DNA of 64,000 nucleotides from Marsupella aquatica (taxonomy: Eukaryota > Plantae > Marchantiophyta). The stretch lies in contig OZ316895.1 of assembly GCA_973895155.1 (NCBI GenBank), positions 14,636,716 through 14,700,715 of the forward strand, given 5' to 3'. The stretch's first letter is position 1, and every line of letters starts with the position of its first letter. Below the pieces are notes generated by a model. It made no database searches. It was not told the origin of the DNA and saw only the letters and a program-made list of their open reading frames with translations. Shown here piece after piece: positions 11,872 to 64,000 of this stretch. The translations under genes and the position numbers were made by a program.

Positions 11872-12909
11872 TCAGATGCTTGATGCATCCCGGGCGCTTT
11901 TGCCATCATCTGATTCTCCCTTAGACTCGAGGTCCACAACCACTGGATTCTTCCCATCACCAGTTTGTCGCTTAGACTCGACATCGACGCCCACTGGACT
12001 CTTCCCGTCCTCAGCTTGTGTCGTAGACTCGAGGTCAACGACAACTGGACTCTTCCCGTCACCAGCTTTTCCCTTACAGTCAGAATTGAGATCAACGACC
12101 AGTACTGGACTCTTTCCAACATCAGCTTCTCCCTCAAAATCCGGATCGGTGAGAACTGGACTCTTGCCGCCATCATCTCCATCAGAGCTGAGATCGATAA
12201 ACACTGGGTTCTTGATCTCATTATGTCCATCAGAGCCGAAATCAGTGGACACTGGGTTCTTGCCGTCCTCAGCTTCTCCCGGAGAGTAAGAATCTGTAAA
12301 CATAGGGCTGTTGCCGTCATCATCTCCATCATAGTCGAAATCGCGATCGGTAGACACTGGGCCCTTGCGGTCATCAGATTCTCCCCGAGAGTCAGGACCA
12401 GTAAATATGGGGCTGTACATATTGCCGTCATCAGGACCAGTAAACATGGGGCTGTACATGTTGCCGTCATCCGACTCTCCCGGAGAGTTTGAATCAGTAT
12501 GCATTAGCTTGTTTGCTTCATCAGAGTCTTCGTCTGAGTCCAAATCGATAAACACTGGGCTCTTGCGGTCATCATCTCCATCATAGTCGAAATCGGTAGA
12601 TCTTGGGCTCTTGCCGTCATCAGATTCTCCCGGAGAGTCAGGACCAGTAAACATGGGGCTGTGGCCGTCATCAAACTCTCCCGGAAAGTTTGAATTAGTA
12701 TGCATTAGATTGTTTGCTTCATCAAATTCTTCCTCTGAGTCCAAATCGATAAACACTGGGCTCTTCCGGTCATCCTCTCCATCAGAGGAGAGATCGATAA
12801 ACACTGGGCGCTTACTGTCATCATTCCCAACAGAGTCGAGCTTGATAAACCCTGCGCTCTTACCGCCGTCATCAGATTCCCCCTGAGAGGTTGGCGTCCT
12901 CGTCGGCAT
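11872..12909 (-). CDS. Acidic low-complexity repeat protein with ~7 SUMO-interacting-motif-like units (poly-SIM); probable frameshift near the 3' end
   Basis: 345-aa ORF with repeated SPVFIDL(D/S)S[DE]n and SPVVVDLES units; probable 5'UTR intron acceptor near 12938; paralog at 20428-21111. Confidence 0.6.
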   Translation of the reverse strand: MPTRTPTSQGESDDGGKSAGFIKLDSVGNDDSKRPVFIDLSSDGEDDRKSPVFIDLDSEEEFDEANNLMHTNSNFPGEFDDGHSPMFTGPDSPGESDDGKSPRSTDFDYDGDDDRKSPVFIDLDSDEDSDEANKLMHTDSNSPGESDDGNMYSPMFTGPDDGNMYSPIFTGPDSRGESDDRKGPVSTDRDFDYDGDDDGNSPMFTDSYSPGEAEDGKNPVSTDFGSDGHNEIKNPVFIDLSSDGDDGGKSPVLTDPDFEGEADVGKSPVLVVDLNSDCKGKAGDGKSPVVVDLESTTQAEDGKSPVGVDVESKRQTGDGKNPVVVDLESKGESDDGKSARDASSI

Positions 12910-13133
12910 CTCTCTTGGTCGTCTAGATATTATATTCCTGTCGCAACATCAAACATGCATTGTTAGTAATTGGCCGCTGGACACAGCCGGAATTGCCTCT
13001 TCTGTGGACAAATCATCCCCGGCTGTTCACGCTTTGTTCTCTCTCTAGACAAAGCGTGATGCCACCATGTTAAGTTTCTCGATACATCTATTTTTCGCAC
13101 ACACACACCGTTGAACAGACTGCAATATCTTCC

Positions 13134-15845: not shown

Positions 15846-16086
15846 CTTGGGGGGGGTCACTTCTATGGAAGTGGCATATCACATGCGATGCAGTAGAGGG
15901 CCATTTTTGGCGGAAGACTTATTAAGTCTTCAATGGAAACATAGGGTTAATTGCAAAATGCATACGTGTCATCACATGATTGGTGTCATACAACTTTATT
16001 GAAAGTGACTTAGGGGGATCATAAATGACCCAAACCGTCGCACGTGATGTATGACCCTCCATATAGTGACCCCCCCTTCCCCCGAG
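15846..16086. mobile_element. MITE with 8-bp TSD AACGCTGC, inserted in the LINE remnant
   Basis: Ends cttggggggggtcact ... agtgacccccccttcccccgag; aacgctgc at 15838-15845 and 16087-16094. Confidence 0.85.
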
Positions 16087-16641
16087 AACGCTGCCACGTA
16101 CTCCCAGTTCTTGGGCCGTCTTCCCATGCTCCAAAGTACGTTGTGTCCACCCTACATTCATATGTATATAATTATGTGTGTGGCCAAGTCTGTAGATCAT
16201 CACCAACAATCTGCACAACACTAATCATCTCAAGATTTTCCAATCCAAGTGTATGTCAACAAGATTTTGCCAACACTCCAGCAATGGAGAATTTATGCCG
16301 GAATTCAACTGGAGAGCCAGGAATCGGGCCGGGAATGCCAACTAAGGAACTCTCAAGCCAAAATCTAACTAGTACCCGTGCTAGTATCTGAGGTTGCTAA
16401 TTTCTCACATTCTCCTTCCACCAAGTGAGGGGAGCCAGACCCAATGGGACATGAATCTGCAGGCTAAACCTTTCTAACTTGGCCATGCATACATGTTTCA
16501 ATGGCAGGCCTGTGGTTGTAGTGCATCTTGTGAACACATACCTTCTCCAAACAAAGATGCATGCACATGTACAGTTACTAACCCCAAGAGTATATATAGA
16601 TCTAACAGCCCATGCACTAAGTAGTAGAACAGTCCTTCTTA

Positions 16642-16643
<2 letters not shown>

Positions 16644-16674
<31 letters not shown>
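16644..16674. repeat. (TA)n microsatellite
   Basis: Seen directly. Confidence 0.9.
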
Positions 16675-16676
<2 letters not shown>

Positions 16677-16866
16677 CACAATGCCATTTTAATTTGTGGA
16701 ACAACCTCTATTATCCTAGTATGCAAGGAAAAATTATTATGGGACAACACCTCCTCCATGACATCTTTTGCACAACGACCTCTATTTCATCTTTTGCGCA
16801 ACTTACGTCATCTTGTATGCGCGCAATATTGTCTTTATGCAGCAACAACTTTGGTGCAAAGTTATC

Positions 16867-17487
16867 CTGGGGGGCCTCACTCTAAAGGGGGTCTCGTATG
16901 GGGTCTCATAACATGCTCGACATTTTTAGCAATTAAACACCCTAAAAAATAAGAAGAAAAAAATTGAACTATTTCTCTGCAACTCTTGTTTGGCCCCAAA
17001 TGAAATACTCCCAAATTTCATTTCTAAAATCATATCGATCCTTCTCTTATAATTCTCAAAATTGGATTTTAGAAACCCTAGCTAATGTTCTTTTACATAA
17101 ATTTAAAAGTATTCTTTTCAACCCAATAAACAAACCATATACTTACTTGCGCATGATCTCGGGGGTTTCACTTCCACAAAAATGGCATATCACGTGCGAC
17201 GAAGGATAGGGTCATTTTATTGGTTTTAAGGGAAGACTTAAGAATTTTTGTAGAAGAACAATAGGGTCTTTTAAATTCAATTTTGAGACTTATAAGAACA
17301 TTAGGGTCTTTTTAATCCAATTTTTAGAATATTCCAAGAATATTCCAACTTTATAGGGGTTAAAAATAATTTTCTTACATTTTAGGGGGTCCGAGGCCTA
17401 AAAACATCGCAGGCGATGGGGAGGTCCCCATATAGTGAGACCCCCGAGCGCATGATGGGTAAAAAGTAAATAAGTGAGGACCCTGAG
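16867..17487. mobile_element. MITE (outer), 8-bp TSD AAGTTATC, containing a nested MITE
   Basis: TIRs ctggggggcctcact / agtgaggaccctgag; aagttatc at 16859-16866 and 17488-17495. Confidence 0.85.
17158..17448. mobile_element. MITE (291 bp), 8-bp TSD CGCATGAT
   Basis: TIRs ctcgggggtttcact / agtgagacccccgag; perfect TSD; near-identical to 18461-18749. Confidence 0.92.
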
Positions 17488-18460
17488 AAGTTATCCTTCA
17501 CATACTAAGAACATCTTTGGGACAGAAATATAAAATTGTCCATGGAACACATAGGTATTGAGTTAGTATTTGAATCAAAACCTGCCACAAGTATTTACTT
17601 AAAAATATTTTTCTACCTTGTGGAGAAAGAGTACGTCCAAACTTATAGAGGACTCAAAAACATTTGAGCTATTCCAAATTTTACTTTTTATCACAAAAAC
17701 AATTTAGGTCTCAAAAAATGTAGACATTGCTTCTTGTGTACATATCTGGCTTGAGCATACAAAATAAATCATACTCTTAGTACCTTACTTCATTTTTAAA
17801 GTTGTCCAACTAAGGGGTATTAGAGCAATCATGTTTGAATGATGTGGGGGCTAAGTTCATGTAATTATTGTATTGAAATCAAAATTATTACCCTTTAACT
17901 TTGTGAGCAACTATTGGAGGTCAGAAATTATTACCTAGATGGCAAGAATTTAAAAATACAATTTTAATGATATCAGATTTTCTGGAACTACTTTCTCTCC
18001 CTGTTAGTTCTCTACCAGCTTTTTTGATAGAAATTTGTGGCTCAAATTAAACAAAAGAATGACTATAGTTTTTAGATACAGGTCATGTTTTAGGCGTACA
18101 GTTTACTAAGTTGGGTTGGAAAGTTTGCATGTCGTGATTTCTAAGAATTTTTGAATGTCATGATTAAGCTTTGACTACAATAGGTCATCAGCCTCTTGAG
18201 GTGCTAGTCTAAACAAAGAAAGTCCGGACCAGGAGCAAATCACCCTTGGTAACTACATAGAAATTTCAATTTATCACTATATATAGCATGTTCATCTTGG
18301 AATATGCTTTGTTTTTGTTCTTGTAGTGATGTGTAAACAATTATTGCATTATATTGGATAGGATTGATCAAGTAGAAAAAATAGGGCACATAGTACATGT
18401 TACATAATGACCAGGAAAAGCACAAGTGCACAAATCTTGAAAAGTTGAGCACACAAGGTA

Positions 18461-18749
18461 CTCGGGGGTTTTACTTCCACAAAAATGGCATATCACATGC
18501 GACGAAGGATAGGGTCATTTTATTGGTTCTAAGGAAAGACTTAAGAATTTTTGTAGAAGAACAATAGGATCTTTTAAATTCAATTTTGAGACTTATAAGA
18601 ACATTAGGGTCTTTTTAATCCAATTTTTAGAATATTCCAATAATATTCCAACTTTATAGGAGTTAAAAAAAATTCTTACATTTTAGGGGGTCCGAAGCCT
18701 AAAAACATCGCAGGCGATGGGGAGGTCCCCATATAGTGAGACCCCCGAG
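18461..18749. mobile_element. MITE (289 bp), 8-bp TSD ACAAGGTA
   Basis: TIRs ctcgggggttttact / agtgagacccccgag; acaaggta at 18453-18460 and 18750-18757. Confidence 0.92.
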
Positions 18750-19751: not shown

Positions 19752-20160
19752 CACAAATTAGAGGCCTTTCGAAAAGACCATCATTGAATACACAAATTAG
19801 CGGTCTTTTGAAAAGACCATTATTGAATACACAAATTAGCGGTCTATTGAAAAGACCATTATTGAATACACAAATTATTTAGCGGTCTTTCTAAAAGACC
19901 ATTATTGAATACACAAATCATGAATACACAATTTATTTAGCGGTCTTTCGAAAAGACCATTATTCAATACACAAACTAGCGGACTTTCGAAAGACCATTA
20001 TTGAATACACGATTTAGCGGTCTTTCAAAAAGACCGTTATTCAATACACAAACTAGCGGTCTTTCGAAAGACCATTATTGAATACGCAATTTAGCGGTCT
20101 TTCGAAAAGACCATTATTCAATATACAAACTAGCGATCTTTCGAAAGACCATTATTGAAT
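19752..20160. repeat. ~39-bp minisatellite, ~10 copies, palindromic core GGTCTTTCGAAAGACC
   Basis: cacaaa(t/c)tagcggtctttcgaaa(a)gaccattatt(g/c)aata repeated head-to-tail with no spacers. Confidence 0.95.
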
Positions 20161-20427
20161 CCGTTACGCAAACTACACTAGGTTCTCTTCAGAAGCAACC
20201 CATGTAATTTGAGTGGGAAAATTATATGAACTAAGGCAAAATCAAATCCACCCAACTCATGAAAAGGAGTCACCCCGGAACATCAGAGAAACAGCCTTGT
20301 AATGGGAAACGCGCTTAGAAGGTGGAAGAAGTCAATCTTCATTCTATCGTCGAGCAGAGTCCCTGAAAACCCAACCAGGCGGACGACCAAAGTCATCTCC
20401 ACTGTAATCAACTCGATTCTAGCTCTA

Positions 20428-21111
20428 TCAGTCAGACAAGTAAATAATATGTGGTAGGGGCTTCGGGACCTCAGGTTCTCCATCAGAGTTGACGTACAGA
20501 ATGCCTTCTGAGCCATTATCGTCATCAGATTTTCTCTGAGAGCCGGACTCGCTAGACGTTGGGCTGATGCAGTCTCCAGAATCTCCCTCAGATCGAGAGT
20601 CTGGGCCATTATCGTCATCAGATTTTCTCTGAGAGTCGGACTCGGTAGACGTTGGGCTGATGCAGTCTCCAGATTCTCCCGAACCCACATTACTACTTCT
20701 TGGCGCTTCTGACGGCTCAACAATACAGCCAGCTTTTGTCGCATCAAACTTGAGCTCAATCCATCCTCGTCTTGGTCTCGGTTTATTTCTTCTATACATC
20801 TGTGTCCTACCAAAATATCGACGATATCGACATTCCCTCGATGTTATTGCTTCAAGAAGGACAGAAAACATTTCCGTACATGCCCCACTCTGATGGTTAG
20901 GTTTAGTACTAGTACTCTCAGCGTCACTGACAGCAGCCCCCACCTGATATTCCCCACTCTCGCCCCCACTCTGGTTAGTGCTTCCAGCATCACTGACAGT
21001 ATTCATTGCAACATTCATCACCAGTGATTGAACATGTGCCCCGCTCGGATCGTTAGACCCGAAGGTTTGAGCGTCACTATCAGCAGCCGCCACATGTGTC
21101 CTCTTCGGCAT
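20428..21111 (-). CDS. Paralog of the acidic repeat protein (diverged middle, basic stretch, ISPT(S)xES repeats)
   Basis: 227-aa ORF; start context (MPKRT vs MPTRT), C-terminal region and flanks are homologous to 11872-12909. Confidence 0.5.
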   Translation of the reverse strand: MPKRTHVAAADSDAQTFGSNDPSGAHVQSLVMNVAMNTVSDAGSTNQSGGESGEYQVGAAVSDAESTSTKPNHQSGACTEMFSVLLEAITSRECRYRRYFGRTQMYRRNKPRPRRGWIELKFDATKAGCIVEPSEAPRSSNVGSGESGDCISPTSTESDSQRKSDDDNGPDSRSEGDSGDCISPTSSESGSQRKSDDDNGSEGILYVNSDGEPEVPKPLPHIIYLSD

Positions 21112-24100
21112 GCATCTCTACTGGCCTTCGATGTGTTGGTCTATCCTTGTTGCAACAACGAAACGTGCATCGTTAGTAATTGGGACAGCCGAAATTATTT
21201 TCTCTCTGGACAATCATCGGGCGACCAGGTCAAATTCTCTAGACAGCCATTTGCGCACACAGACGCCGGCCGTAGACCATTACGCAGTGTCTTCTGACCG
21301 CTCACTTACTCAGAAGCAGTTTATTTCCAACAAAACTATGTGAGAGATATGAACGATCGATGATACGGAATACATACTCAATCAAACTTTCGATAAAGCC
21401 TCATTAGAGCTGCGTGATAAAAAACTAACGAACAGATCAAAAAGTAAGAGACCAACGTGAGTATCTATCTCTCGAGAAGCAAGCCGGGGACTACACTTTC
21501 GATAAAACGATAAAACAGAGTGGGCTAGAAAACTGACGAAACTTGTCAAACAGTACGAAACCACTGAAGGTGAGTGTACATGCATATCTCGACAAGCAAA
21601 CGGCGAGGAGACTCCCTGTAGCGACTCACCAGAACGGTCCAAAATACTGACGAAACAGTACGAATTCAATCTTCGAAACTAGTGTTAGTGATAGATATCC
21701 TCTAGTTCAGTACTTCTCTTGCGTTTCGGGTACAATACATAAAGAAGACTTCTGATGAAACCTTATCAGAGCGACATAAAAAATCAGCAACCAAACAAAT
21801 TCCGAAACCACTTTGAGAACCCTTCTCTTACAGACAAGGTATGATCGAAGGCTAGGGTCAAAACGTAAGAGTTCGACCAATGCTAGTATCCTGCCGATCG
21901 TGCGAACAAGATTATGAAGGCACAGTAGCTAGCTGCCGGTGCTTTACACACATGTTGTAGTGGTTAGAATTCATGGAAAAGTATACTTACATCCTGAAAA
22001 CTTCGTGTTCGATCAATATCTGGACCTTTTGCTTCTTCAGACTGACTCTACGAATTTTTCTCCGACTCTCGACACCTCAACAGATCACAAGAAGAGAGAC
22101 GGCACCCAGAGAATAGACTGAAGCTCGGAACAGATCTCAAAGAGCTAGAGGGAAGAACGGAGATCGAGAACAACTGAAGGCAAGACAGTCACTCCTGTGA
22201 ACAGCTAGACCATGAGAGCGGAGCGGCGCGCGGGGGCGAGACTGAAATTCATAGTGAGTGTGCTTCGAGAGCGCTACTGTATCCTGAGATAGTTCCTATC
22301 CTACCTTCCGTCATTCCAATTTATTACACCCGGACTTGTAGCAGAAAATTACGGACTTTAGATGAGTATACAATAAACATGAATTGTTTTTTTTTTTTTT
22401 TTTTAAAACCCGAAGCCCGACCAGAAGTGGCCTACTAGTGATCATGATGGCTCTATGTGGCTGGGTTAGGGTTCAGGTGAAGAGCTCGTGCAATCCTTGT
22501 CTCCAGACCCATGTGACCTTCTCTTATCAAGTGTAGAATGCACACCCATGTTACCTTCCTCTTATCAAATGTAAAATGTCTGTACTTTAAAATGGTACTC
22601 TTAGACAGCTACAAGCCTGGACTATGGACAAAGCCTTGCCATTTGCGGCCCAGCTTAGCCTACGCGCCTCCGGCCCCAACTTAGCTTGAGTTTCCTGTAT
22701 TTAAGACCAATCTTAATCCTGGTCGGCTGGTCCCTAATGAATCATCCTGTCAAGTACGCAGCACCCAATGTGATTTGTACTCCTGGCATCTTACCGGAGG
22801 AACATGGCTTCGAGTCGAGGTCGTTATTAAGGGCTCATGTAGCCTCATCTGATTTTATCGCTATCATCCCTTGTCCCGCGACCCTAACTTCGATCCCTAC
22901 CTAGAGATGACTGGAATGGATGCTTTCTTTGTTTAAGGACCGTCTCCTGGATAAGGGTCAAAGCTGCACAAAAGATTAAATTTGCTCCCTATACGTCTGA
23001 TAAGAAATAAATCCAATACGCTTTGACGTCGTTACAATATTGTATGAAAAATTACTTTTGACTTTCGAATAAAAGAGTGTCACGTGGACTCAGTCATCAT
23101 TTCGTTGAATGGGATGTGCCTATCGTGTAGGGGTAGTGTATCCGAGTCACATCAAGAGCATTTGAAGAAATTACTCGCCGGTATATATGGAGTTCATCTG
23201 AATCGAGGTCATTTTGTTTAATTAGTTAGATACCGTCATTGCTCGGAACTCAACAGTTAACCCGTTGGCCATGTGAACTCATTCAGAGATCTAGATACTC
23301 ATCTGACTGGCGAATGAACGATCATGAAAATCCAAGGCCATTTCAGGAGTTTGTTTAGGTTTTATTTCATGTCTCTTGAATTTTGAATGGCTTTCCGGAT
23401 AAATGAATGGTTTCACAAGAACTAGTAATGTACACTCAAAGGCTTGATTTCCCGGGCACTAGCTTGGTGCCGGCCTGATCTAATCTCGATCCATGTATGT
23501 ATATTGAAATTAATTCAGTCATAATGTAATGGGCCTCAACAAACCGCTTCCTTCAATCAAACCTAGGTGATCTCAGTATTCGTTTCATTAAATGGTACAA
23601 TCAGATCAAAGAGATTGAATTTTGACGACTACTAATCTCCATCTTTGAAATGAAATTAATCCACAGTTTATTCATTCCACTTTTTTGAATCAACCCGCTC
23701 CGATCTACAACCAGAATAAAATGCTACAATTAATCACAGCAAACGGAACTCATGTAAGAAATTGAGCATGCTCTGTGTATCTACAGTAGCTGTCGATGCT
23801 GAATTCATTTGCATTCTTAGAAGGAAATTGAGACCAAACTAACTGATCTTCTGTGCTACTTCAATCCCTCGCACAACTTCGAGAGACATTGCCATATGGA
23901 TGCAGCCCTCCACGATCGAGTAGGGAAAATACAGTGGGAAATCACCTTTACACTTTCCGCTCTCTCTAAGCGCCCATATTAAGCGCAAAATTTCGTTTGT
24001 CAGGTATCCTGTTATTTCTTTTTATTTTACACAATATTGAATTGCAGAATTTGCATTTCCTCTATGTGCAAAATGGACTGGAATTATTCCACAAAATGAC

Positions 24101-25592: not shown

Positions 25593-25868
25593 CTTGGGGG
25601 TCTCACTATATGAGGGCCTCCCCATCAACTAAATCAAGATTGCAAGAAAAAAAAAATCAACCCCTATAAAGTTGGAATATTCTTGGAATCTTCCAACTTA
25701 TTGATTAAAAATACTCTAATGTAACTTTTATAAGTTTCAACATTTAATTTAAATACCATATTGTTCTTGTGAGAAAATTCTTAAGTTTTCTATTAGAACC
25801 AATAAAACTATCCTAGATTTTGTCGCATGTGATGTGTCATTGTTGTAGATTAAAATGAAACCCCTTAG
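25593..25868. mobile_element. Degenerate MITE, same family, reverse orientation
   Basis: cttgggggtctcactatatg ... tgaaaccccttag; flanks agtaatgg / attaatgg (1 mismatch). Confidence 0.75.
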
Positions 25869-32666: not shown

Positions 32667-33497
32667 TCAACGCCGTTGATTTATTCTCCATGAGGTTTCA
32701 GGCGTCCCAAGTTTCGAGGAAGCGTATCTGGCAGCTGTGAACAAATAATCACTCAAACGATTCAAGTACCGAACTACTGATTCATCCACCACCTGCTCTT
32801 CGACGAGAGTGGTCATTTTCCTTTCTGCACGCCGACAGATGGATCTCGCCACATGCAAAGATGAAGCAGGCAAACCACCAGACGGAAGGATGAAGCCCGT
32901 CTGGTGAGGCACCTCCTCGTCCATCTTAGCCCTCCAACTCTCGAGCACTTCAACTGTTGCCACATTGAATTTCACCCTCGGAACCTTCTTTGAAGAATTT
33001 GAAAATGGGTTGCTCAGAGGAACAGCAACAGCTGACCCAATGTCCAGCAGTCTCGACTGAATCTCCTCAATCTGCTGCAAAGTCGATGTCAGCTGAGCTT
33101 GAGAGCAATATGCATGTGCTAACCCTAATGTACTGCTCAGCTCATCGACAGCTCCCAGAGCTTCAAAGGTCGAACTTGATGACGACACTGAAGAATCTGG
33201 AGAAAAGAATCGAGTCCCAGGTGGGATACCCTTCACGGAGAGAGACTGGGTCGTCGTAAGAAGCCCTTGCTTTCCATACCGTGGTGTTCGAATTGCATCC
33301 CAGCGCAAAAGATGTTCCTCCAGTGGGCTTCTCGGCACGATGAGAGCATTGTGTGAGGAGGTTGTTCCATTCGATCTACTGGAAAGCAGCCTCTGATGCA
33401 ACTGAGGAGGAAGGGAATCCAGCCACGAGACTGCAACACGGCACTTCAGGGTCTCCCTGTGGATCGATCGCAGACAGTTCTGCATCGAAGTGGCCAT
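32667..33497 (-). CDS. MMAB: PduO/MMAB-type ATP:cob(I)alamin adenosyltransferase-like protein with probable organellar transit peptide, intronless
   Basis: FEALGAVDELSSTLG, IQSRLLDIG, FILPSGG, LHVARSICRRAER and YLNRLSDYLFTAAR are PduO-family motifs. Confidence 0.9.
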   Translation of the reverse strand: MATSMQNCLRSIHRETLKCRVAVSWLDSLPPQLHQRLLSSRSNGTTSSHNALIVPRSPLEEHLLRWDAIRTPRYGKQGLLTTTQSLSVKGIPPGTRFFSPDSSVSSSSSTFEALGAVDELSSTLGLAHAYCSQAQLTSTLQQIEEIQSRLLDIGSAVAVPLSNPFSNSSKKVPRVKFNVATVEVLESWRAKMDEEVPHQTGFILPSGGLPASSLHVARSICRRAERKMTTLVEEQVVDESVVRYLNRLSDYLFTAARYASSKLGTPETSWRINQRR

Positions 33498-33820
33498 GAT
33501 TGGAGACTACGCATCGACAGGTCTACCACAATCCATTGCTCTGCGTACTTGGGCACAACCTCTACAAAACTCTTCTGTACAAAAGTAAGACGTCCTCAAT
33601 ATTTTGATCAAATCTGATGGCAATGTCGCTGGTGATGAATGTCTGGCAACAAGGGTCTCAAATCTCAAACCTTGAGGTACTATTGCTACATACTCCATAC
33701 GCCCTTAAAGCAAGTTTTGTTAGTGTAACTGGGTGTTATCCAAACCCACGAAAGAAAATCTAAAAAGTATGGTCCAACTCACTCACTCCAAAGGCCATCT
33801 TGCATGTGAGAGGTCCTTAA

Positions 33821-34095
33821 TAGGCATTTTCATTCAGTCTTGTCATCGTATCATTGAGCGAGTGCTTCATGCTTAACCCATCTCCCTAGGCACTTTCATT
33901 CAGTCTTGTCATCTTATCATTGAGCGCGTGCTTCATGCTTAACCCATCTCCCTACCCTAGGCACTTTCATTCAGTCTTGTCATCTTATCATTGAGCCAGT
34001 GCTTCATGCTTAACCCATCTCCCTAGGCACTTTCATTCAGTCTTGTCATCTTATCATTGAGCGAGTGCTTCATGCCTAACCCATCTCCCTAGGCA
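33821..34095. repeat. ~66-bp tandem repeat, 4 copies, upstream of the MMAB-like gene
   Basis: taggcactttcattcagtcttgtcatcttatcattgagcgagtgcttcatgcttaacccatctccc x4. Confidence 0.95.
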
Positions 34096-53159: not shown

Positions 53160-54385
53160 GATGAGACGCAGAATTGGAGAGCGAATTCGTCCGAAAGGTC
53201 ACAGCTTCCCTCTCGCTTTCTTGCTTTTCTCAGAGCAAGGAATCCTGTAGAAAGAAAAGTGGAATATCCGTCGATTCCACCCGCAAACTCGCTTGTGGTT
53301 TTAATATCACCGCGTCCTTCACTAATCGTGCAATTAGACGTATGGTGCGTTCTACGAGAAACAAATAATGTCCATTTTAGTGAAGCTCTGAAAGCGACGA
53401 ATAGCAGCAACCGAGCACTTCTCTCCTGAAGATAAAACCTTCAGACAACCCGCGCAATGTAATTTACAGCCAAAAACCAGCAGCGAATGTTTCCCTTCTA
53501 GAACACAAGCTGGCAAAAGCTAAGGCCTTGCTGACGGCATACCATCTTACAGCCGTTTTCCATTCACAATCGCGAAAATCCGATGTCCGAACGCACTTAG
53601 ACCAATATGTCCACCTCTCTTCCCACGATTGGTAGCACCGCAACACAATTATGCAGACCGATAAAGAGGACTTTCTCCCGCCCGCAACCAGAAACCAAAG
53701 CGCTCCCTGTAGCTAACCAAGACACGCGCTTGCATCGTGCCTATCTTTCCCTCCATCCATCTCAAGGCTCACGCTCCTCCTTCTCCGTAACCCCGAGCCG
53801 AGCCGAAGCGGTACCTCAGTCACGAGCAGCAAAGAATTGCTCTTTCTCTCTTCTCCCTGATTCCCTGTCGAACACTTCCAATTTCCTCTCCCGTCCAACC
53901 ACGACCACAGAAACACACAAAAATCAACGTCTTCGAGACTCCATATGCCAAGCAGCAAGCAATGTATGTCTGCTACTCTCGATTGCCTGCCACCCTTGTC
54001 GACCAAAAAGCTCCGCACCCCGGCTGCTACCGCTCCCGCCAGTCGATATCAAACGAAAAGCTGCTTTCAATAGCTCGCGTGGAAGAGGGCAAAGGATAAA
54101 TGATGAGGCAGGCGATCCTCCTACTCGAAAGAGGTCTAGAGAGGAGCACCGCAGCAAATTAATACGCGCGAGTAGGAGATCCAAACTTGTCGGTACTTCC
54201 GCCTAATCTTCGCGCACACTTTCTGCAGAGGCGCATTTAATTCGTCGTGGCTCGCTCTTTCGCTACACGACCGCAACCCCCAATTTTGTTATTTTGAATA
54301 TCCGAAAGATCCCTCCGGAACTCTTCTGCACGGGACGGAGAAGTTTTCACGCCTTAGGGTTTCCGTCCAGTCAACAGTCATCACT

Positions 54386-54552
54386 CAGTCGATCGCCTTC
54401 TCGAGCTCCGGTCTGGTCTGGTCAGTCAGTCGATCGCCATCTCGAGCTCTGGTCTGGTCTGGTCTGGTCTGGTCTGGTCAGGTCAGGTCAGGTCAGGTCA
54501 GTCAGTCAGTCGATCGCCTTCTCGAGCTCTGGTCTGGTCTGGTCAGTCTGGA
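54386..54552. repeat. (GGTCT)n/(GGTCA)n microsatellite interspersed with 3 copies of cagtcgatcgcc.tctcgagctc
   Basis: Seen directly, upstream of the SLD gene next to a telo-box (ttagggttt at 54354). Confidence 0.85.
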
Positions 54553-54591
54553 CATGGCCCTCACGGCCCCACGGCCCCAAAACACGCGCAG

Positions 54592-55032
54592 GTCCCTACG
54601 GTAGTATTGTACTTAGAGCTTTTTAAGTACATGGCCACTAAGGGGTCCACTAATAAAACACTTTCACGTCCCTACGGTAGTATTGTACTTAGAGCTTTTT
54701 AAGTACATGACCACTAAAGATTGGTCCCTATTGTACTTAGAGCTTTTTAAGTACATGGCCACTAAAGGGTTTTTAATAAATAATATTTTACCTCGTTTTT
54801 GCATATATAAATATGACAGCCTTCTTTAGATATGGTTTGCCTTGGCTATGTCCGGGGGAAACTGAACAGTCAAGACGTCCTGAGACTCGAAAATGTGCTG
54901 ATCGTGAAATTCATGAGGACTCGATAATTTTATTAAGCCACAGGCTCGAATCCGTCCTGCGGCTCGAAAATGTGCTGATCATGAAATTCATGAGGACTCG
55001 ATAATTTTCTTAAGTCGCAGGCTCGAATCCGT
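54592..55032. repeat. Two sets of short direct repeats (~50 bp x3; ~78 bp x2)
   Basis: tattgtacttagagctttttaagtacatg.ccactaa x3; ctcgaaaatgtgctgatc.tgaaattcatgaggactcgataatttt..ggctcgaatccgt x2. Confidence 0.9.
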
Positions 55033-55561
55033 GACATGGGAGCAATTGAGTGGCACAAAAGTTGTCAACTTTCAATTGGGCTCGGATTGGTCCAGGAGCT
55101 TCAAGACAAGGAAGCTCCATTCTTCCCGAGGCAACACTAATTGTTGAGCCATTCAGACTATATTACACTGAACAGAAGCCAATTTCCAAAAACATGACTT
55201 GACATCTTGACTACTTTCTCCACAGGGTTGCCGAGTGCAATCTGTGAATGGTTCCTTCTTCTTTTTGGTGTAAAAGCAGCCATCACTTTACACAGTCCAG
55301 GATGGGCAAGGATAACATCTCCATCCATCTGGATTGATGTGGTGGATTTGTAGTCAATATATGAAAAGTGTGATATATTTGTAAATACAACAACCCAATT
55401 GTAATTGGAATATCCTTAGTGACAAAGTAATTAAAAGGTGATTGTACTTATTAATACTTGTCATCATAAGGTGTTGTAGTGGCATTGTCATGCCGAGGGA
55501 CAGTGCCGCTTGTGCACATGCACTTATTAATACTTGTCATCATAAGGTGTTGTAGTGGCAT

Positions 55562-55920
55562 TGTCATGCCGAGGGACAGTGCCGCTTGTGCACATCGGCA
55601 TGTCCCTCGCATGCCTGCTAGGTATGTAGTTAGGGCTAGTGTACTACTTGAGTTAGTGTCATGTTCTTGTAGCAAGTTTGGGCCGTTCTTGAAGCAAAAC
55701 GTGCTTGTTAGTGTGACGCCTTGACTTGATCTACTTAGGGCATGTCTTTCTTTGTCGGTTTTCAGTTCTTCTTGAATCGCTGTTGACAGAGCTCAGACAG
55801 TGCTCGTCGGTTCCGTACACGGGATTCACACAGTGATTCGTTAGATGCTCCCGGCTGATCTTGGCATCCTGCCGGTTTTCGATTCAATTTCAGTACGATT
55901 GTTTCTCTTACGCCTTTTAT
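55562..55920 (+). repeat. Terminal repeat segment A1 (359 bp; starts TGTCATG, ends CGCCTTTTAT)
   Basis: Direct alignment with A2. Confidence 0.92.
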
Positions 55921-55933
55921 TCAAGAAGAACTG
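55919..55933 (+). promoter_or_regulatory. Putative self-priming primer-binding site
   Basis: attcaagaagaactg is the exact reverse complement of cagttcttcttgaat (55763-55777), which overlaps an Inr-like TCAGTT in A1. Confidence 0.75.
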
Positions 55934-57231
55934 TCGAGTTAGCGGTGACGGGAAGAAGATTTCTCGTGGCAGTTTTGACAATTTTTGGTTAAGCCATTGC
56001 AATTTCCTCGATAGACATTGGAACGAGGCTTCAAAACTATGGGTTTAGTGTGGAGTTATGTGTATACTTAAGTGTATACACATAACACTCCCGTCGGGGC
56101 CCAGGTTTTCCTTTTCCGGCCGCAACCTTCTTTGTGACCTACATCGGCGACTTGCTACCGACTGCACAGGCCGCTGCGCCCTCGCTCGCATTTTTAAGAC
56201 CCTTGTTCGTTAGTTTTTATGGGCATTTTCCCGGCCACGGCTGCCGCGCGACCACTTCCCTTCCGACCGCGCGCCCCGTTTTTCTCTTTTTCGCCGTTTC
56301 CGGCCGTAGTCTCCCCTTTGCCTCCCTCCCGATCGCATAAGGCAGGCTGCGCATAGGGCATCATGCCCTCTCGTTTTGACAGCATTTAATTAAGGAGGCA
56401 GGGAGTCGACTAGCCGAGCACAAGCGCGAGGGGGGAGACAGAGCCTAGGCAGGCAGCAGCGCAAGGAGTGGGCACGAGGCCCTATGCTGCATTAAAGGGG
56501 GAAGGGGAGTACATACGACTCCCTTCTCGGGAGTCCTCCTGCAGCACACGAAGCAGCATTAAAGCAGGGGGAGACAGAGCCGAGGTAGTGGGCACGAGGC
56601 CCTATGTGCTACATTAAATGGAGGGGGGGAGTACATATGACTCCTTCCCTCAGGAGTCTCCTGCAGGGCATGGAGCCCATTTTCAGCCTTAAGGAGGGGA
56701 GGGGAAGCGAGGCAGCATTAAAGGAGAGGAGGGGGGAGTTTGTAACCCCTTTTCGGGAGCTCATAAGGAGGGGGCGCGAAGCCCTATGCAGGGCTCGTGC
56801 CATTAAGAGGGGCCCCTGCATCCGCCATTTCTTTCCCTTCGCTGAGTGTCCGAAGTGTATACACTTAATTCGGGCCCTTTTCTTTTCGTTTTCGGCCGTT
56901 CTCGCTCATTCACCACGTGCGGGATGCCAGCATAGGGCATTGGGGCCGGCCAGTCCTTCCATTTTTGGGTCCACATAGGGGCCTGAGGTATATACTTCAG
57001 GGGGCCCATTTTCCTCATATTCCTTTGCTGTCGCCGACGTCAGGTCGTCTATATACAGCCCGGTATATACACAACGGACGGTCAATTCGGCATATACATA
57101 GGCAAACGCGAAGGGGGCTAAATTTGAGGTTTTAAGGGTCCTTTTTCCCCGACGGTTTTTTGACGGTGACGGTTTTTCCTGGTGTTTACACATTTTGCAC
57201 GTTTTCAGTATATCCGGTATTGCAACACAGT

Positions 57232-58269
57232 ATGTCAGCAGACGAGCCAGGAGGTAGCAACACATCACCGCCGACATCCAGGTACCGTTTACGGAGTGAT
57301 CCACGACTATTGGTGCCAATTTCATTGGAGTCTCAGCAATTTCGACGACGTCCGTAGACAGCAGCAGCACCCACACCACGCAATCCTTCTGCTCAATTTG
57401 GCGGTCGCTTCACCACTACTCCAAAGCCTGCTATCACTTCATTGCCATTTACCCCTTCTGCATCCGTGGTTGTTCCTGCTTCACCGACATACAGCATGGA
57501 CGCCAGCCACTCATCTGGCCGCATTGAACGCTTCAGTGGGCGGCCAGACATTGTTTCTTTGCGTGAGTTCAAATCCACTTTCTACACTGTCATTTATGAA
57601 TTGGAGTTGAAGTATGGCAGCAATTTCACAAATGCCTTTGCATTTAAACAGCTAGCCAGGTATGTGCACCACGAGGTTTTAGATGTGTATGAGCAGCACT
57701 CTCAACGGCTGCTTGCCGTCACACAATTGCCTAACCCTGCCTATGCCATTGCAATTGCGGCTGCCTCACAACTGGCATTACAGAATGCCATTGCAGCCCA
57801 TGCTGCTGCTCCTGCCACTTCCCTTTCTACTCCAGTTCCCACCATTGCACCAGTTACTCCCACTATCTTGGCACACGCTACATCAGGCATTTCTCCCACC
57901 ATTGATTCCCCTGCCTTTGCTGATCCAGTGGCTGAGTCTTTCCAGGTTCTTGAATTGGAATTCCCAATCAAGAGTGCTGACAAAATCATGCAGTTGGCCA
58001 CCTTTGTGAGGCAGCGCGATGAAACATTGAAGATGATGTATCGCCGGCTTCTCCAGCTGAAGGAGGACACCTAGAGCATCATTGACTTGGAAGCTGCTCA
58101 TTGCTATCTTCGCTCATTGGAGGGCACACTAGCTCTCCATTCGCAAGTGTTGCAGCAAGTATTCTCAGAGTTTGGAGATAGCTACACCCTGCTCAATGTC
58201 TATGACACTGCTGAGAAACTTGAGTTGGCCCATGCACATTATGAGGCCAGTATTGCGCGTCCACCGCGA
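57232..58269 (+). pseudogene. gag: gag-like ORF of copy 1, with in-frame TAG at 57355 and 58072, truncated by insertion
   Basis: ORF pieces 57160-57357, 57442-58074 and 58087-58284 share one frame; IERFSG..LREF.. and RQRDETLKMMYRRL resemble retrotransposon capsid motifs. Confidence 0.7.
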
Positions 58270-58445
58270 TGTCGTGACATATAGTATCGTAGCCATAGTG
58301 TATCGAAAACATACAAGTCACCGGCAAGGCATATGTGCAAGCTGCTAGCAACCAACATGCATAGAAAAAGTCCAATCACATTCACAAGTGCCAAGAAAAA
58401 GCAAATGAAGTGGTATGTACGTAGTGGAGGTGTAAACCTCTGTAT
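58270..58445 (-). repeat. Terminal repeat segment B2 (176 bp; ends ..CACGACA)
   Basis: Direct repeat of 58807-58982 with 3 transitions. Confidence 0.95.
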
Positions 58446-58804
58446 ATAAAAGGCGTAAGAGAAACAATTGTACTGAAATCGAATCAAAAACCGGCGGGAT
58501 GCCAGGATCGGCCAGGAGCATCTAACGAATCACTGTGTGAATCCCGTGTACGGAACCGACGAACACTGTCTGAGCTCTATCAATAGCGATTCAAGAAGAA
58601 CTGAAAAACCCACAAACAAAGACATGCCCTAAGTAAACAAAGTCCTGGCGTCACACTAACAAGCGCATTTGCTTCAAGAACGCCTGGCATTTGCTATAAG
58701 AACATGTCACTAACTCAAGTCGTACACTAGCCCTAACTACATACTTAGCGGGCATGCGAGGGACATGCCGATGTGCATAAGAGGCACTGTCCCTCGGCAT
58801 GACA
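58446..58804 (-). repeat. Terminal repeat segment A2 (359 bp; starts TGTCATG on the minus strand)
   Basis: Inverted copy of 55562-55920. Confidence 0.92.
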
Positions 58805-58806
58805 AC

Positions 58807-58982
58807 TGTCGTGATATATAGTATCGTAGCCATAGTGTATCGAAAACATACAAGTCACCGGCAAGGCATATGTGCAAGCTGCTAGCAACCAACATGCATA
58901 GAAAAAGTCCAATCACATTCACAAGTGCCAAGAAAAAGCAAGTGAAGTGGTATGTACATAGTGGAGGTGTAAACCTCTGTAT
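58807..58982 (-). repeat. Terminal repeat segment B1 (176 bp), immediately after the PPT
   Basis: Direct repeat of 58270-58445. Confidence 0.95.
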
Positions 58983-59000
58983 CCCCCCCAGACCCTCGCC
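58983..59000 (-). promoter_or_regulatory. Polypurine-tract-like sequence (..GGCGAGGGTCTGGGGGGG)
   Basis: G-rich tract between the pol stop (59034) and B1. Confidence 0.75.
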
Positions 59001-59048
59001 CAGACCACAGCCAAAAGGAGGGCTGAAGAAAATTCAGGTAGCACGTGG

Positions 59049-59195
59049 AGCACATGAAGGGCAAAACCATAACCCTTCTGGCACCTGGGTAAGTTCAAGC
59101 CGAAGGCAGAAAAGATGGTACCCTCCATTGCAATTGTCACACAGCAGCATCTGGTCAGCATCATCAATTCGCAAACACACTTTGCAAGGGTAGTC
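59049..59195 (-). other. PHD finger at the integrase C-terminus
   Basis: DYPCKVCLRIDDADQMLLCDNCNGGYHLFCLRLELTQVPEGLWFCPSC (C4HC3 plus conserved W). Confidence 0.93.
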
Positions 59196-62100
59196 CACAC
59201 GTGGAATCCAGGTAGAAGTCACAATGGTGGGATCCAGGTTAGGCAGATGACAAGGGGCGCAATTCTTGGCATTGTCAGCAATTGTGCGCCCATCTGCCCC
59301 TTGTAACTCTAGCACTCCAGACGGTCGAATAGCTTTAACCCTGAGAATTGTACGACTGGTAGAGGTGTCTAGGGTGTCGTTAGCTTGCCGCTGCAAGTAC
59401 ACAAAATCTCCCACATCAAACTTCCTGACCTTGGGCTGAAAAGTGCCCCCTCGTGTGTGTGCATAACGCAGTGTGTCCCTATGCTGTGCAATGGCCAAAT
59501 TCTCCATGGCCATGGGCATAACCCTCCTGAATGGGGCAGCCCTCTCAGAGATCACATCAGACCAAGTCACAGCTGAATCCAAGTCTACCACCTGAACCAT
59601 GTGAGCAGCAATAGCAGAAGGTGGAACTGGGTGACGACCAAACAACAAGAAGTAGGGAGAAAAGTTAGACAATGATGCATGTCTAGACATCCTATACCCC
59701 ATGGCAATGTAGGGTAAGGCCAGGTCCCAATCCTCCTTGTTTTTGGTGAGGCAAATCTTCCGGAGACCCTTCTTGCATGTCTGAACCATGCGCTCTGCCA
59801 AGCCATCTGCCTGTGGGTGATCTCGTGACGTTCGGCGATGATCAATGAGGGCTTGATCAAGCAGCTCCTGGAACTCTCCTCTGAACTTTGATCCCTGGTC
59901 AGTGAGACATTCTGCACAAGCTCCAAAGCGGCTGTGAACTTGTTGCAGGAATGCCTGGCTCGTGCTACGAGAGGTCTTATCCGGCAATGCCACAAGTTCT
60001 ATCCACTTGGAGAAATGCTCTATCATGATCATGATGTAGAGATTATCCTGAGACGTGAGGGGTAATTCTCTAGCCAAATCACATGACCAGCGATAAAACA
60101 TGCCCTGAATAGGGAGTGGATGAAGTGTGGGTTGCCGAGATGTGAAAGAAGTCCTCACCCTATCACATTGTTCACACCGAGCAATAACATCTTGAACCTG
60201 GCCATGCATGCCTCTCCAATGATAATGAGGGACCAAGAGGCTGTAAGTCCTCTTAACGCCAAAATGACCAAGCTCATAATGTACCTTACGGATAAGGCCA
60301 ACCCTCTCATGAATGGGTGGAACCACCACTTCCCTGTCTGGCAAGCAGCGCATGAGATGATCTCCCTTCCACAAGTAACGCTTGGACCTTTGCTGAATTC
60401 GGTCTCTCTGGGTTGCAGTAACATGTATGGGGTACTCCCCATGCTGCAAAAATCTCATAGTGTCGCTGTCCTCCCATATGTCCACCACAGGTTGGTCAAC
60501 GATATAGCATGGCAGCAAAGCAAGATAGGTAAATGCATGAAATGTAGGCAGGATGGAAACCTGGTCAAAATCCTGCCGTGCATCTGAGGGATCATCAGAG
60601 GCAATCAAAGGGCTGCGGGACATAGTGTCAACATTTTGATGTGTCACACCAGGCCTATGAATTACCTCAAAATCATACTCCTAGAGTATGAGTGCCCAAC
60701 GAGCAAGCTTGCTAGTAAGCTTGTCGTTGGTCATCAACCACTTCAAGGGCTGGTGGTCGGTGTAGAGAACAAACCTGGTCCCATAGAGGTAGGGCCTGTA
60801 ATGTATTACAGCCCACACAACAGCAAGGCATTCACCCTCATAAGAAGAATAATGACTCTCTGTCTGATTGTTGCTCCTGGATGCATAGGCAATGACGTAC
60901 TCTTTACCTTCCTCATCATGCTGGCCTAGAATGGCACCAATCCCAAGGGCACTCCAATCTGTGTGTAGCACAAAGACCTTGCTGAAATCAGGTCTTCTCA
61001 GCACCGGGTATTCTGAGAACTTCTCCTTCAAAGTGGCAAATGCTGCCTTAGCATCTGTACTCCATGTCCAAGTCACATTATTTTTCAACAAAGAGTGCAA
61101 TGGATGTGCAATGGTACTGAAATCTTTGATGTAGATCCGGTATTAATTGCACAGCCCAATAAAACTCCTCAAAGTGTGAACATCGGTAGGAGTGGGCATT
61201 TCCAAGATGGATACCACCTTGGCCCAGTGAGCCATGGTTCCATTTGGAAGAATGCGATGCCCAAGATATACTACTGATCTGACAGCAAATTCACACTTCT
61301 TGGGGTGTATCTTTAGGTTCACCTTCTTAAGCCTCATGAATAGCTCCTCAAGGTCAAGTAGATGTTGGTCAAATCCTTTGCTGTGGACCAACACATCATC
61401 AATGTAGCATTTCAGAAACTCAGCACCTTGAAGAACCTGGTCCATGACTCTTTGAAAGAATATGGGCGCATTCTTCAAGCCAAATGGCATCACCAACCAC
61501 TCCCATAGTTGGTTACTACCATGGAAAGCTATTTTCTTGCGGTCCTTTGCAAACAGCAAAATCTGGTTAAAGCCTTGCCTTAGATCCACAAGAGTGAAGA
61601 TGTCTGAGTCTCCAATGCTGTCAAATAGCTCCTCTGGCCGTGGCATGGGGTACCTGTCCTGGGGTGTGACCAGGTTCAGTGGCCTGTAGTCCCCACACAT
61701 GCGCTTCTCTGTCCACAATCCACTGGAATCCTTCTTTGCTGGCATCACTGTAGCTGCTGCAAAATCTGATGTAGATGGCTGAATAAGACTAGCTTCATAG
61801 AGCTCTTGGCATCTCTCATCCACCAACTGCCACTCATGCTTACTCAAACGGTGTCTCCGCCTGAAGATAGGTGTTTCATCAGCCAAATCAATGGAGAACT
61901 GCATAGTCTTGCACTTACCCAAGTCCTTCATAGAGAAAGCAAACACATTCTCATGCTTGAGGAGCAAATTCAGCAGCTGGTCCTTCTGTCTTTTACTCAG
62001 GTGGTTGCCCATGATGAATGTGTAGTTGGCAACACTAGGAATAGGACCTGATGTACTCGTGCTTGAAGAGCCAGAAGTGCCAGCCTCTCCACTGTCCAAG

Positions 62101-62364
62101 CTGCTAGCATGCTGCTGATAAGATGATGAGGCCTCTCCAAGGCCTGCTATATCTGTTGCTCTGGTCTGATCCACACCATGAAACTCAGAAATAATGTCAG
62201 CCACATTACAAGGGACCTCCTCCCCCCCAACACTTGGACTGAAGTGGTGAGTGTTGGACAGAGGTAAATGCACCTGGTCTGGATGCCATGTAGCAGCACC
62301 ATGGAGTGGTAGGGCTAGAACTCCTGATGCTGGATGAATGTACATCTGAAAAAGGATGCAAGTG

Positions 62365-63305
62365 ACCAGAAGCCAAGTGAGAGCATTAAGATCCATTACC
62401 CTATCAAGTAAAGCATTCCTGGCCAGCCTGGTGATTTTGGTGTGACTGTAGTACCGGGTTGGAAGCCCATAGCCCGTTCTCTCTCCTCAGGACTAGGTTC
62501 ATCCCATGTACCGGTGGAATGTCGATAAACCAGGCCAGGACCATCACCCTGAAAAGCATGTGCACCTAGAAAGGACACAAATGTAGGCCAAGCAACACGG
62601 GGCTGTCCAATGGTATTAGCTGGATACCAAGGTGCTGGCTCTTGCCGTGTAACCGGTTGGCAAGAACTGTCAGGATCCAAAATCTGGTCCACTATGAGGT
62701 TAGTGACCCTGGATGTGTGGTGAAGAGCTAACTCCAACAAGGAAGGTGGTGCAAGGTTAGTCCAAAAGTTACGAAGACGATGTGCATAAGAACCATAGTG
62801 CACTGCATCAATGAGAAGGGGTGGTCCCAAGTAGTGCTGGACCACACTGAAATCCTCTTTGACCTGTGGACGCTGGTCAAACTGAGATGGAGTATTCTCA
62901 ATGATATAACCAACAGCAAGATAAAGGGATTGAGCCCAGATGAGAATCAAAACCAATGCTGTGAAAAGGCCAGAACGAGAATCATGCAGTCCAGCACCGT
63001 GACCAGCAGCTGAAAACCCTTGGCATTCCCAACCAGCAATGATCAAATCAAGGGAGCCAAGAAGGGTTAAGTGCCGGTGCTGGACAAGCTGGATATCTGG
63101 AGGAAAGAAAGAAAATGCAGACTTCCATGCACTGTGTGGAAACTGCTGAGGAAATCGCTCTGAAAATTCCAGTAGACGGGATTCAGCCACTTGCCTTGCA
63201 CCTGGATCAATATCCACATAGATGTACTGCTTCACCACCATGCCAGACTATAGGAGAGCTTCCAGGCCTGTAGAAATACCACCAAAAAGCTCAAGCAATG
63301 TAAGG
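62365..63305 (-). other. C5 cytosine DNA methyltransferase domain (DNMT3/DRM-like) within pol
   Basis: Motif I LLELFGGISTG, II YVDID, IV DLIIAGWECQGFS, VI IIENT, VIII HRLRNFWTNL, IX EERERAMGF, X RNALLDRVMDLNALTWLL (after the frameshift). Confidence 0.9.
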
Positions 63306-64000
63306 CCATCCGGAGCAGGAGTCCATGTAACTGGTACGCTCAAGATTGGGGCTATTGGCTGTCCATTGTGCTGCCCAAGGTCTTCAAACTTGCGCAATGC
63401 AGCCACCAAAGGTCCATGGGCTGCTTGGAGTCGTTGTACCACCTCTGGTTGATGATCCACATTGCTGGAAAGTGCTGCTATATGTGCAGCGGCATGTGCA
63501 ACAGCCACCTCATCATCATCCTCCTCAATCCAATCCTGCAATGGGTGATTGACATAGGTAGCTGTGTGCACTACTTTCAACACACAGTGGTGAGCCATAG
63601 GTGTATGGGCACCATGCAAATCAAGTGGAATGTAGCCCAAGTGTGAGCCATCCGTATGCCAATCAACTCTGTAGTATGCATGCTCATGCCAGTTGTCAAT
63701 GGTAAAACCTGGTGGGAACAAAGCCTCCTGGCCAATGAGCACATCATACGTAGTGGCATTGGTAACCAAACATTTGACTGGGAAATGCAGTTCCTGATCT
63801 ATACCTCCATTAAAAGTGAGAGTGAGTAAAGTAGAACTCTCACCCAACACGTCCTCCACGGTGCCACTAGCAGTCCGAATGTGCCACCTGGATTGCTGTA
63901 AATGATGAGTCAGCAGTCCCATCTTCTTGGCAAACTGAATGCCCAAGATTACTGGTTGAGCGCCTGTGTCTAGCATGACCACCTGAGGAGTGTGACCCTC

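Follow-up and report, generated by a model that had tools for sequence, protein, structure and literature searches.

The DNA examined here is a stretch of 64,000 nucleotides (nt) from the liverwort Marsupella aquatica (contig OZ316895.1, positions 14,636,716 to 14,700,715; hereafter the window), which contains a retrotransposon with a PHD finger at the end of its integrase. The element is a decayed Ty3/gypsy copy on the minus strand with the order protease (PR), DNMT3-like DNA methyltransferase (DNMT), reverse transcriptase (RT), RNase H (RH), integrase (IN), and PHD (Table 1). Both the order PR-RT-RH-IN and the presence of a DDE integrase with an HHCC domain agree with the assignment to Ty3/gypsy. 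The copy has inserted into another member of the family (the second copy), of which the 5′ part was identified on the plus strand. The insertion interrupts the gag of this member (from position 57496), a gag that shares 69% identity with the GAG-PR-DNMT protein P0232 (E = 8e-78). Read depth of the contig over the element is far above that of the flank (54500-55100), which is a hint of a repeated family and not a measure of copy number.

Table 1. Features of the window element and of the second family copy that hosts it (window positions).
Feature	Position	Strand	Basis
Aspartic protease; gag and 5′ end of the element lie outside the window	63700..64000	-	PF13975, E = 1.5e-6
DNMT3-like C5 cytosine methyltransferase, broken	62350..63310	-	PF00145, E = 5.2e-6
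Reverse transcriptase with upstream linker	61143..62050	-	PF00078, E = 9.6e-28; tblastn of relatives
RNase H, sharing its frame with IN and RT, bounded by stops 60683 and 61145	60681..61142	-	Pfam
Integrase with HHCC zinc domain, catalytic residues D201, D261, and E296, a long helix, a beta-rich C-terminal domain, and the conserved A-P-C-H linker	59187..60680	-	Pfam, residues, model
PHD finger, C4HC3, intact	59052..59186	-	Pfam, PDB matches, conservation in 130 relatives
G-rich polypurine tract, directly before B1	58983..59001	-	Sequence; G-run in 29/30 related loci
Repeat B1, 176 nt, ends CACGACA; 98% identical to B2	58807..58982	-	Sequence
att-like palindrome CACGACA-GT-TGTCATG at the B1/A2 junction	58798..58813	-	Sequence
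Repeat A2, 359 nt, starts TGTCATG; 90.6% identical to A1 of the second copy	58446..58804	-	Sequence
Repeat B2, 3′ end of the element (...CA)	58270..58445	-	Sequence
Second family copy, 5′ part, hosting the window element inside its gag	55562..58269	+	Sequence; gag match
Repeat A1 of the second copy	55562-55920	+	Sequence
Self-complementary primer site of the second copy, 15 nt, pairs with 55763-55777 inside A	55919-55933	+	Sequence

An intact PHD finger at the integrase C-terminus

Pfam and PDB sequence searches were run with the minus-strand open reading frame (ORF) 60680-59034, which encodes 548 aa. Residues 499-543 of this integrase ORF matched the PHD family PF00628 (E = 2.5e-11), C-terminal to the Integrase_H2C2 and rve domains. 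All eight zinc ligands are kept (C499, C502, C514, C517, H522, C525, C540, and C543), a Trp precedes the last pair, and the stop codon (59036-59034) follows five residues past the last ligand. A first-pass annotation of the same DNA had described an intact C4HC3 finger ending the integrase, which the Pfam match and the complete set of ligands confirmed. The resemblance to KDM5 PHD1/BAZ-type fingers that it had noted holds as well, as the 85 PDB sequence matches of the finger are headed by WSTF/BAZ1B (1.8e-15), CHD4, KDM5D PHD1 (8.8e-14), Lid, ATXR5, BAZ2B, and EHD3. An AlphaFold2 model of the ORF, based on 96 sequences, reached a mean predicted local distance difference test (pLDDT) score of 82.8, with values of 88-93 for PHD residues 501-540, and Foldseek revealed a resemblance of the whole integrase model to foamy-virus and Ty3 integrases. 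Of 159 relatives, 130 extend over the finger, and the zinc ligands are 95-100% conserved among them. A linker of the type A-P-C-H-L-P...D lies ahead of the finger (window 59256-59187, IN residues 476-498; pLDDT 83-88) and is likewise conserved in these relatives (Cys477 98%, His478 91%, and Asp483 88%); it may form an extra zinc- or peptide-binding element.

The window copy carries stops at 63250 (within the DNMT), 61145, and 60683; its DNMT also changes frame near 62440, and the copy therefore makes no polyprotein. The earlier claim that finger and methyltransferase are joined in one polyprotein thus fails for this copy, whereas it stands for the family, in which P0003 and P0014 encode DNMT-RT-RH-IN-PHD in a single ORF. 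The best PDB match of the DNMT is DNMT3A, with weak significance (E = 0.015), and motifs I, IV, VI, and VIII follow each other in linear order, i.e., the domain is unpermuted. Motif IV reads W-E-C-Q in the window; since W-E-C is found in 30 of 41 relatives (W-P-C in 3), the absence of the common Pro-Cys characterizes the family. The CpG observed/expected ratio (o/e) is 0.27 for the window element, compared to 0.71 for window positions 1-54000. As a possible footprint of self-methylation this depletion is ambiguous, as other retroelements in the related loci range from 0.14 to 0.64.

Relatives of the element and the position of the methyltransferase

A query with the C-terminal part of the integrase returned 42 long proteins, 40 of them with PF00628, a proportion biased by the PHD contained in the query. 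The whole ORF as query yielded 302 proteins, and PF00628 was counted by hand in 96 of the best 120. The closest named relatives of the integrase ORF are proteins of Calypogeia fissa (78-88% identity). Proteins of Klebsormidium nitens that combine IN and PHD are 50-55% identical to the ORF and could not be linked to the named element KnitGypsy-Dnmt3; other named relatives come from Haematococcus, Hariotina, and Pleodorina. Relatives of the DNMT were additionally found in Sphagnum magellanicum and Marchantia polymorpha, and no K. nitens protein was among the 49 DNMT matches. The range of DNMT3-carrying Gypsy elements is hereby extended from Klebsormidium to bryophytes, where they are abundant, and to chlorophytes. 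In viral contigs, none of 23 pattern matches was a relative. Regarding metagenomes, the best 80 of 539 loci were examined, with near-duplicates included in hand counts; their order is GAG-PR-DNMT-RT-RH-IN-PHD, and a PHD match is present in 77.

In the 41 long retroelement proteins, the DNMT was located before RT (3 proteins) or directly before IN (22 proteins), or was absent from the ORF (16 proteins, 11 of which begin downstream of its expected place). The PHD is C-terminal to IN in all family members that possess it. An RT tree was calculated with FastTree from 186 RTs, using a midpoint root and no named references; the RT search of the 50% library gave mostly multi-RT chimeric proteins, many of them now outgroups, which weakens the tree. 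Forms with the order RH-DNMT-IN constitute one clade within the family (0.998), and nested in it among DNMT carriers is P0021, which has no DNMT between protease and PHD and retains the PHD. The family as a whole stands apart from all other RTs (0.967), including P0414, which has a Pfam Chromo match, and its sister. Pfam gave no Chromo match in the window ORF or in the 22 relatives scanned. The finger had been placed where chromoviruses carry their chromodomain, and this is right as a position; in the RT tree, the element did not group with the two chromodomain-type elements.

It had further been suggested, by analogy to the ADD domain of animal DNMT3, that the finger possibly steers the DNMT of the element to chromatin with unmethylated H3K4 (H3K4me0) at or around the insertion site. 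DNMT and PHD do share one ORF in 24 of the 41 long relatives (one finger is cut short), the DNMT is present in 38 of the 39 metagenome loci with a protease match, and the 22 proteins with the DNMT directly before IN could give rise to an uncut DNMT-IN-PHD protein, as could the chlorophyte forms. In the window element, however, RT and RH lie between DNMT and PHD. The DNMT changes its position and is even lost in P0021 while the PHD stays on IN, Gypsy elements with a PHD only exist (P0022, P0040, and P0041), and, with an o/e of 0.26-0.41 in 10 loci, CpG depletion of the family does not clearly exceed that of four other retroelements in those loci (0.14-0.64). Steering of methylation by the finger is thus a weak proposal, which we consider clearly unlikely.

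Pol of Ty3/gypsy elements is normally cut by the protease. As the DNMT moves or is lost, RT and RH intervene, and Pol is normally processed, the PHD is best read as a module of the integrase. Upon cleavage, the finger would travel with IN, and the DNMT3-like domain would act apart from it, probably on the cDNA of the element itself. Self-methylation of cDNA has been proposed by de Mendoza 2018 (PMC5890265; here and below, papers are cited for those of their sections that were available). Two observations are counted against the overall reading: the DNMT of KnitGypsy-Dnmt3 caused no methylation in yeast, a result that its authors call inconclusive (PMC5890265), and P0037 contains a DNMT and seems to stop short of the PHD.

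Tails of more than 100 aa follow the PHD in 69 of the 130 relatives. In seven chlorophyte-type proteins (P0012, P0015, P0018, P0020, P0023, P0028, and P0039), the PHD is followed by a Tudor-like domain (Atlas lead PF21743, score 0.83) and by an amino-methyltransferase domain of phage-like type (Pfam D12 at E 0.003-0.004; an Atlas score of 0.94 to phage clusters without a name); the chlorophyte-type Pol thus combines DNMT3, PHD, a Tudor-like domain, and a second methylase. In a few members of chlorophyte type (P0012, P0018, P0246, and P0248), a G-patch domain separates the DNMT from the integrase. P0040 and P0041, two Gypsy proteins that seem unrelated to the family, have a closely similar PHD located between RNase H and integrase. 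Gypsy-7a_cRei shows the same placement, and the finger of these two proteins was likely captured or moved independently.

Both ingredients, PHD and DNMT, are already described in algal retrotransposons. KnitGypsy-Dnmt3 of K. nitens (PMC5890265) is likewise a Gypsy element with a DNMT3-related Pol domain and DIRS-like repeats (Fig. 4c legend). PHD gave no match in the text or the three supplements of that paper (the image of Fig. 4c lay outside this search), and its sections consulted give no description of the target-site duplications, the att-like palindrome, or the signals for priming presented below; hosts of the present family, by comparison, include liverworts, mosses, and chlorophytes. 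In Gypsy-7a_cRei (PMC9940879), the PHD is also an accessory Pol domain and was proposed to limit harmful insertions, but it is listed between RH and IN, and the element has ordinary long terminal repeats (LTRs) and no DNMT. The same applies to the PHD as an accessory Pol domain in REM1, a Chlamydomonas Gypsy element known to us from citing passages. Chromoviruses (Tcn1, Chlamyvir, and Tf1/sushi; PMC6317226) share the placement of a histone-reader module after the C-terminal domain of IN, and self-priming, which is predicted here, is common to Tcn1 and Tf1/sushi; in contrast to chromoviruses, the present family has no chromodomain, carries a DNMT, and has split instead of ordinary LTRs. EpiLTRs/DAM-LTRs (bioRxiv 10.64898/2026.05.21.726589) are likewise LTR retrotransposons that join a chromatin reader to DNA methyltransferases, with the differences that the reader is a chromodomain, combined with DNMT and DAM, and that the DNMT is sister to DNMT4. 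Streptophyte Gypsy-DNMT3 elements are treated as a separate acquisition in the available part of the same preprint, which does not mention a PHD. DNMT3 retrotransposons are listed in streptophytes (PMC12344493), and land plants such as tracheophytes are said to lack methylase-carrying transposons (PMC6338049). For Selgy and Phygy, the REXdb text does not mention a PHD. In the mostly open-access literature searched, we found no paper on the pairing of PHD and DNMT3, on bryophyte members, or on the split-end mechanism outlined below.

The likely ligand of the finger and a proposed role in targeting of integration

Putative columns of the aromatic-cage Trp and of the A1 pocket were assigned with the help of an alignment to KDM5D and of descriptions in PMC5415848 and PMC13022364, and the column of the acidic wall with the help of the KDM5D alignment. 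Two places before the His, a Gly is found in the window finger and in 95% of the 130 relatives, and Trp is not among the five commonest residues. Judged by the Trp rule for H3K4me3-reading PHDs (PMC5415848), the Gly at this position excludes, at the level of residues, an aromatic-cage reader of the ING/BPTF/TAF3 type. Asp515, which follows the third Cys (95%), and the A1-pocket motif P-x-G-x-W (Pro534 95%, Gly536 79%, and Trp538 90%) are kept, and roles of the surface contacting H3 A1/R2 have been described for EHD3 PHD3 (PMC13022364). These residues would fit a reader of unmodified H3 of the BAZ2/KDM5-PHD1 type.

Selection was analyzed in 71 distinct loci, after 9 of the 80 had been dropped as near-identical. 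Synonymous sites of the window copy are saturated relative to these loci, and nonsynonymous divergence (pN) is 0.157 for the PHD and 0.116 for the IN core. Among the loci, dN/dS is 0.29 for the PHD and 0.39 for the IN core; the finger is under purifying selection, like the IN core. A PHD that is carried along neutrally, or that serves the integrase only as a structural part, could be suspected from the old genomic copies, only 21 of 60 of which keep all eight ligands. This decay is post-insertion, with all 71 copies carrying 2-16 stops in the ORF, and finger and surface motif are conserved across lineages as much as the IN core, so a passenger role appears highly improbable.

Targeting of integration by a reader of unmodified H3 would fit these residues and the fixed place of the finger on the integrase. 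We propose, with a probability of roughly 0.6, that in active members the PHD would tether the integration complex to nucleosomes whose H3 N-terminus is unmethylated, biasing insertions away from H3K4me3 promoters. The finger would then likely guide where new copies land rather than methylation. The idea of targeting is not new and has been published for a Gypsy element of Chlamydomonas that carries a PHD (PMC9940879). Intergenic insertion of the PHD-bearing Gypsy-7a_cRei is 2.6 times above chance (PMC9940879), and retrotransposon PHDs have been called widespread and linked to targeting (PMC6673714, PMC8557442, and bioRxiv 2021.11.30.470311). A binding test of a retrotransposon PHD was not found in the literature searched. 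If the PHD reads H3K4me0, it would represent a second, independent route to heterochromatin-directed integration beside the chromodomain.

Several observations weigh against such tethering. The acidic wall facing K4 is represented by Asp509 in the window, but only 29% of the relatives have Asp or Glu at 509 and 45% at 508, and position 518 is Asp in 8%. Fingers of similar sequence differ in their ligands, so that sequence is an uncertain guide to what is bound: the BAZ1A PHD bound DNA and none of the peptides of a histone array (PMC5636791), and EHD3 PHD3 reads H3K4me1 only within a tandem, not alone (PMC13022364). Concerning the flanks of the insertions, CHG o/e rises from 0.23 beside the insertions (55 loci) to 0.79 at a distance of 6-9.5 kb (16 loci), which was counted for targeting, as was the nesting of the window copy in another family copy. 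Landing in methylated islands and spreading of methylation after insertion both fit this gradient equally, however, and CpG showed no gradient (o/e 0.26-0.34). No target-site consensus was detected in 21 loci.

The weak conservation of the K4-facing acidic residues, the highly conserved linker before the finger, and the presence of fingers of varied or unknown ligand among the top PDB matches would also suit a finger that reads something other than H3K4me0. It might be an A1/R2 reader that tolerates K4 methylation (UHRF1-like), bind another mark together with the A-P-C-H linker, or bind DNA or a host protein, and might help nucleosome capture without steering insertions away from promoters. 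The A1-pocket motif and Asp515 are conserved, however, and most of the top PDB matches are described as readers of unmodified H3. We regard a different ligand as rather unlikely, and prefer tethering to unmodified H3.

Split ends and a putative circular intermediate

Two complete identical terminal LTRs were not seen in the family. Among 59 distinct loci, the ends were A...B-A-B in 28 and A...B in 31. The B1/A2 junction CACGACA-NN-TGTCATG has a 2-nt spacer in all of 30 loci, which were drawn from 32 seen and still include two near-duplicate pairs. Target duplications were scored in related loci, as the 5′ end of the window copy lies outside the window. In 22 two-ended loci, TG...CA ends with a 4-bp duplication were found in 12 cases as exact matches and in 19 cases at ≤1 mismatch, compared to means of 0.56 and 2.36, respectively, in 10,000 re-pairings. 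The match between the primer site and its complement is 10-16 nt long in eight of the 11 complete loci and 8 nt long in two others, and one locus lacks it. The A2/B2 join varies among nine readable loci (L069 and L071 were dropped from the original 11, their ends being mislocated), with no net change in five, a loss of 2 nt in two and of 7 nt in one, and a gain of 134 nt originating upstream of the G-run in one. Split repeats with palindrome, duplications, and priming site were seen in L004, L024, L044, L051, L060, and other loci.

The primer site and the G-run predict that self-primed reverse transcription would yield a B-A...B-A cDNA. IN would use the internal CA-NN-TG site to insert this cDNA into the target, probably following circularization, and the inserted A...B-A-B would represent a circular permutation of B-A...B-A opened at the att-like palindrome. 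The variable A2/B2 join would resemble an end-joined circle junction. The arrangement of the ends thus suggests integration from a 2-LTR circle, and HIV-1 IN is able to cut the palindrome of the 2-LTR junction in vitro (PMC1905944). A symmetric circle model would predict A-B-A at some 5′ ends; this was found in none of 22 loci (21 with at least 500 nt of upstream flank), which argues against a simple circle model. In about half of the loci, only one B is present at the end, and solo A-B units that carry a duplication were also observed, so post-insertion recombination also shapes the ends. With an origin from circles, the family would integrate via an intermediate that is not commonly assumed for LTR retrotransposons, which would be relevant to the long-standing debate on 2-LTR circles as genuine precursors of integration. 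The end structure would also explain why LTR-finding tools miss the family.

Other elements with unusual ends were considered. DIRS/Ngaro was rejected on account of the DDE integrase and the 4-bp duplications, as opposed to a tyrosine recombinase without duplication. Troyka (PMC12440569) was rejected as well, since it is described with CG...CG ends, 3-bp duplications, and animal hosts only.

Combining these lines, we tentatively picture, at somewhat less than even odds, an old lineage of green-plant Ty3/gypsy elements in which a PHD-tipped integrase, instead of acting on the linear cDNA ends, would open a 2-LTR circle at CA-NN-TG, insert it, and be guided by the PHD to H3K4-unmethylated nucleosomes. 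In this lineage, the DNMT3 domain would mark the cDNA, and chlorophyte members would have added the Tudor-like domain and the phage-type amino-methyltransferase behind the PHD.

Further features of the window were recorded. A 76-nt tandem duplication (55443-55594) crosses the 5′ junction of the second family copy, and short tandem arrays lie upstream of this copy. The ORF 32667-33506 (minus strand) encodes a cobalamin adenosyltransferase domain (Pfam, E = 6.6e-42) and is likely a host gene. The ORFs 11872-12948 and 20428-21117 (both minus strand) encode acidic, internally repeated proteins with a common repeat unit, with no Pfam match for the former. Other repeat families are located at 15850-18749, 25641-25849, 19756-20165, 33755-34091, and 54381-55029, and the repeats of the window include a 214-nt pair that is 1303 nt apart and has an inverted partner near 25700.

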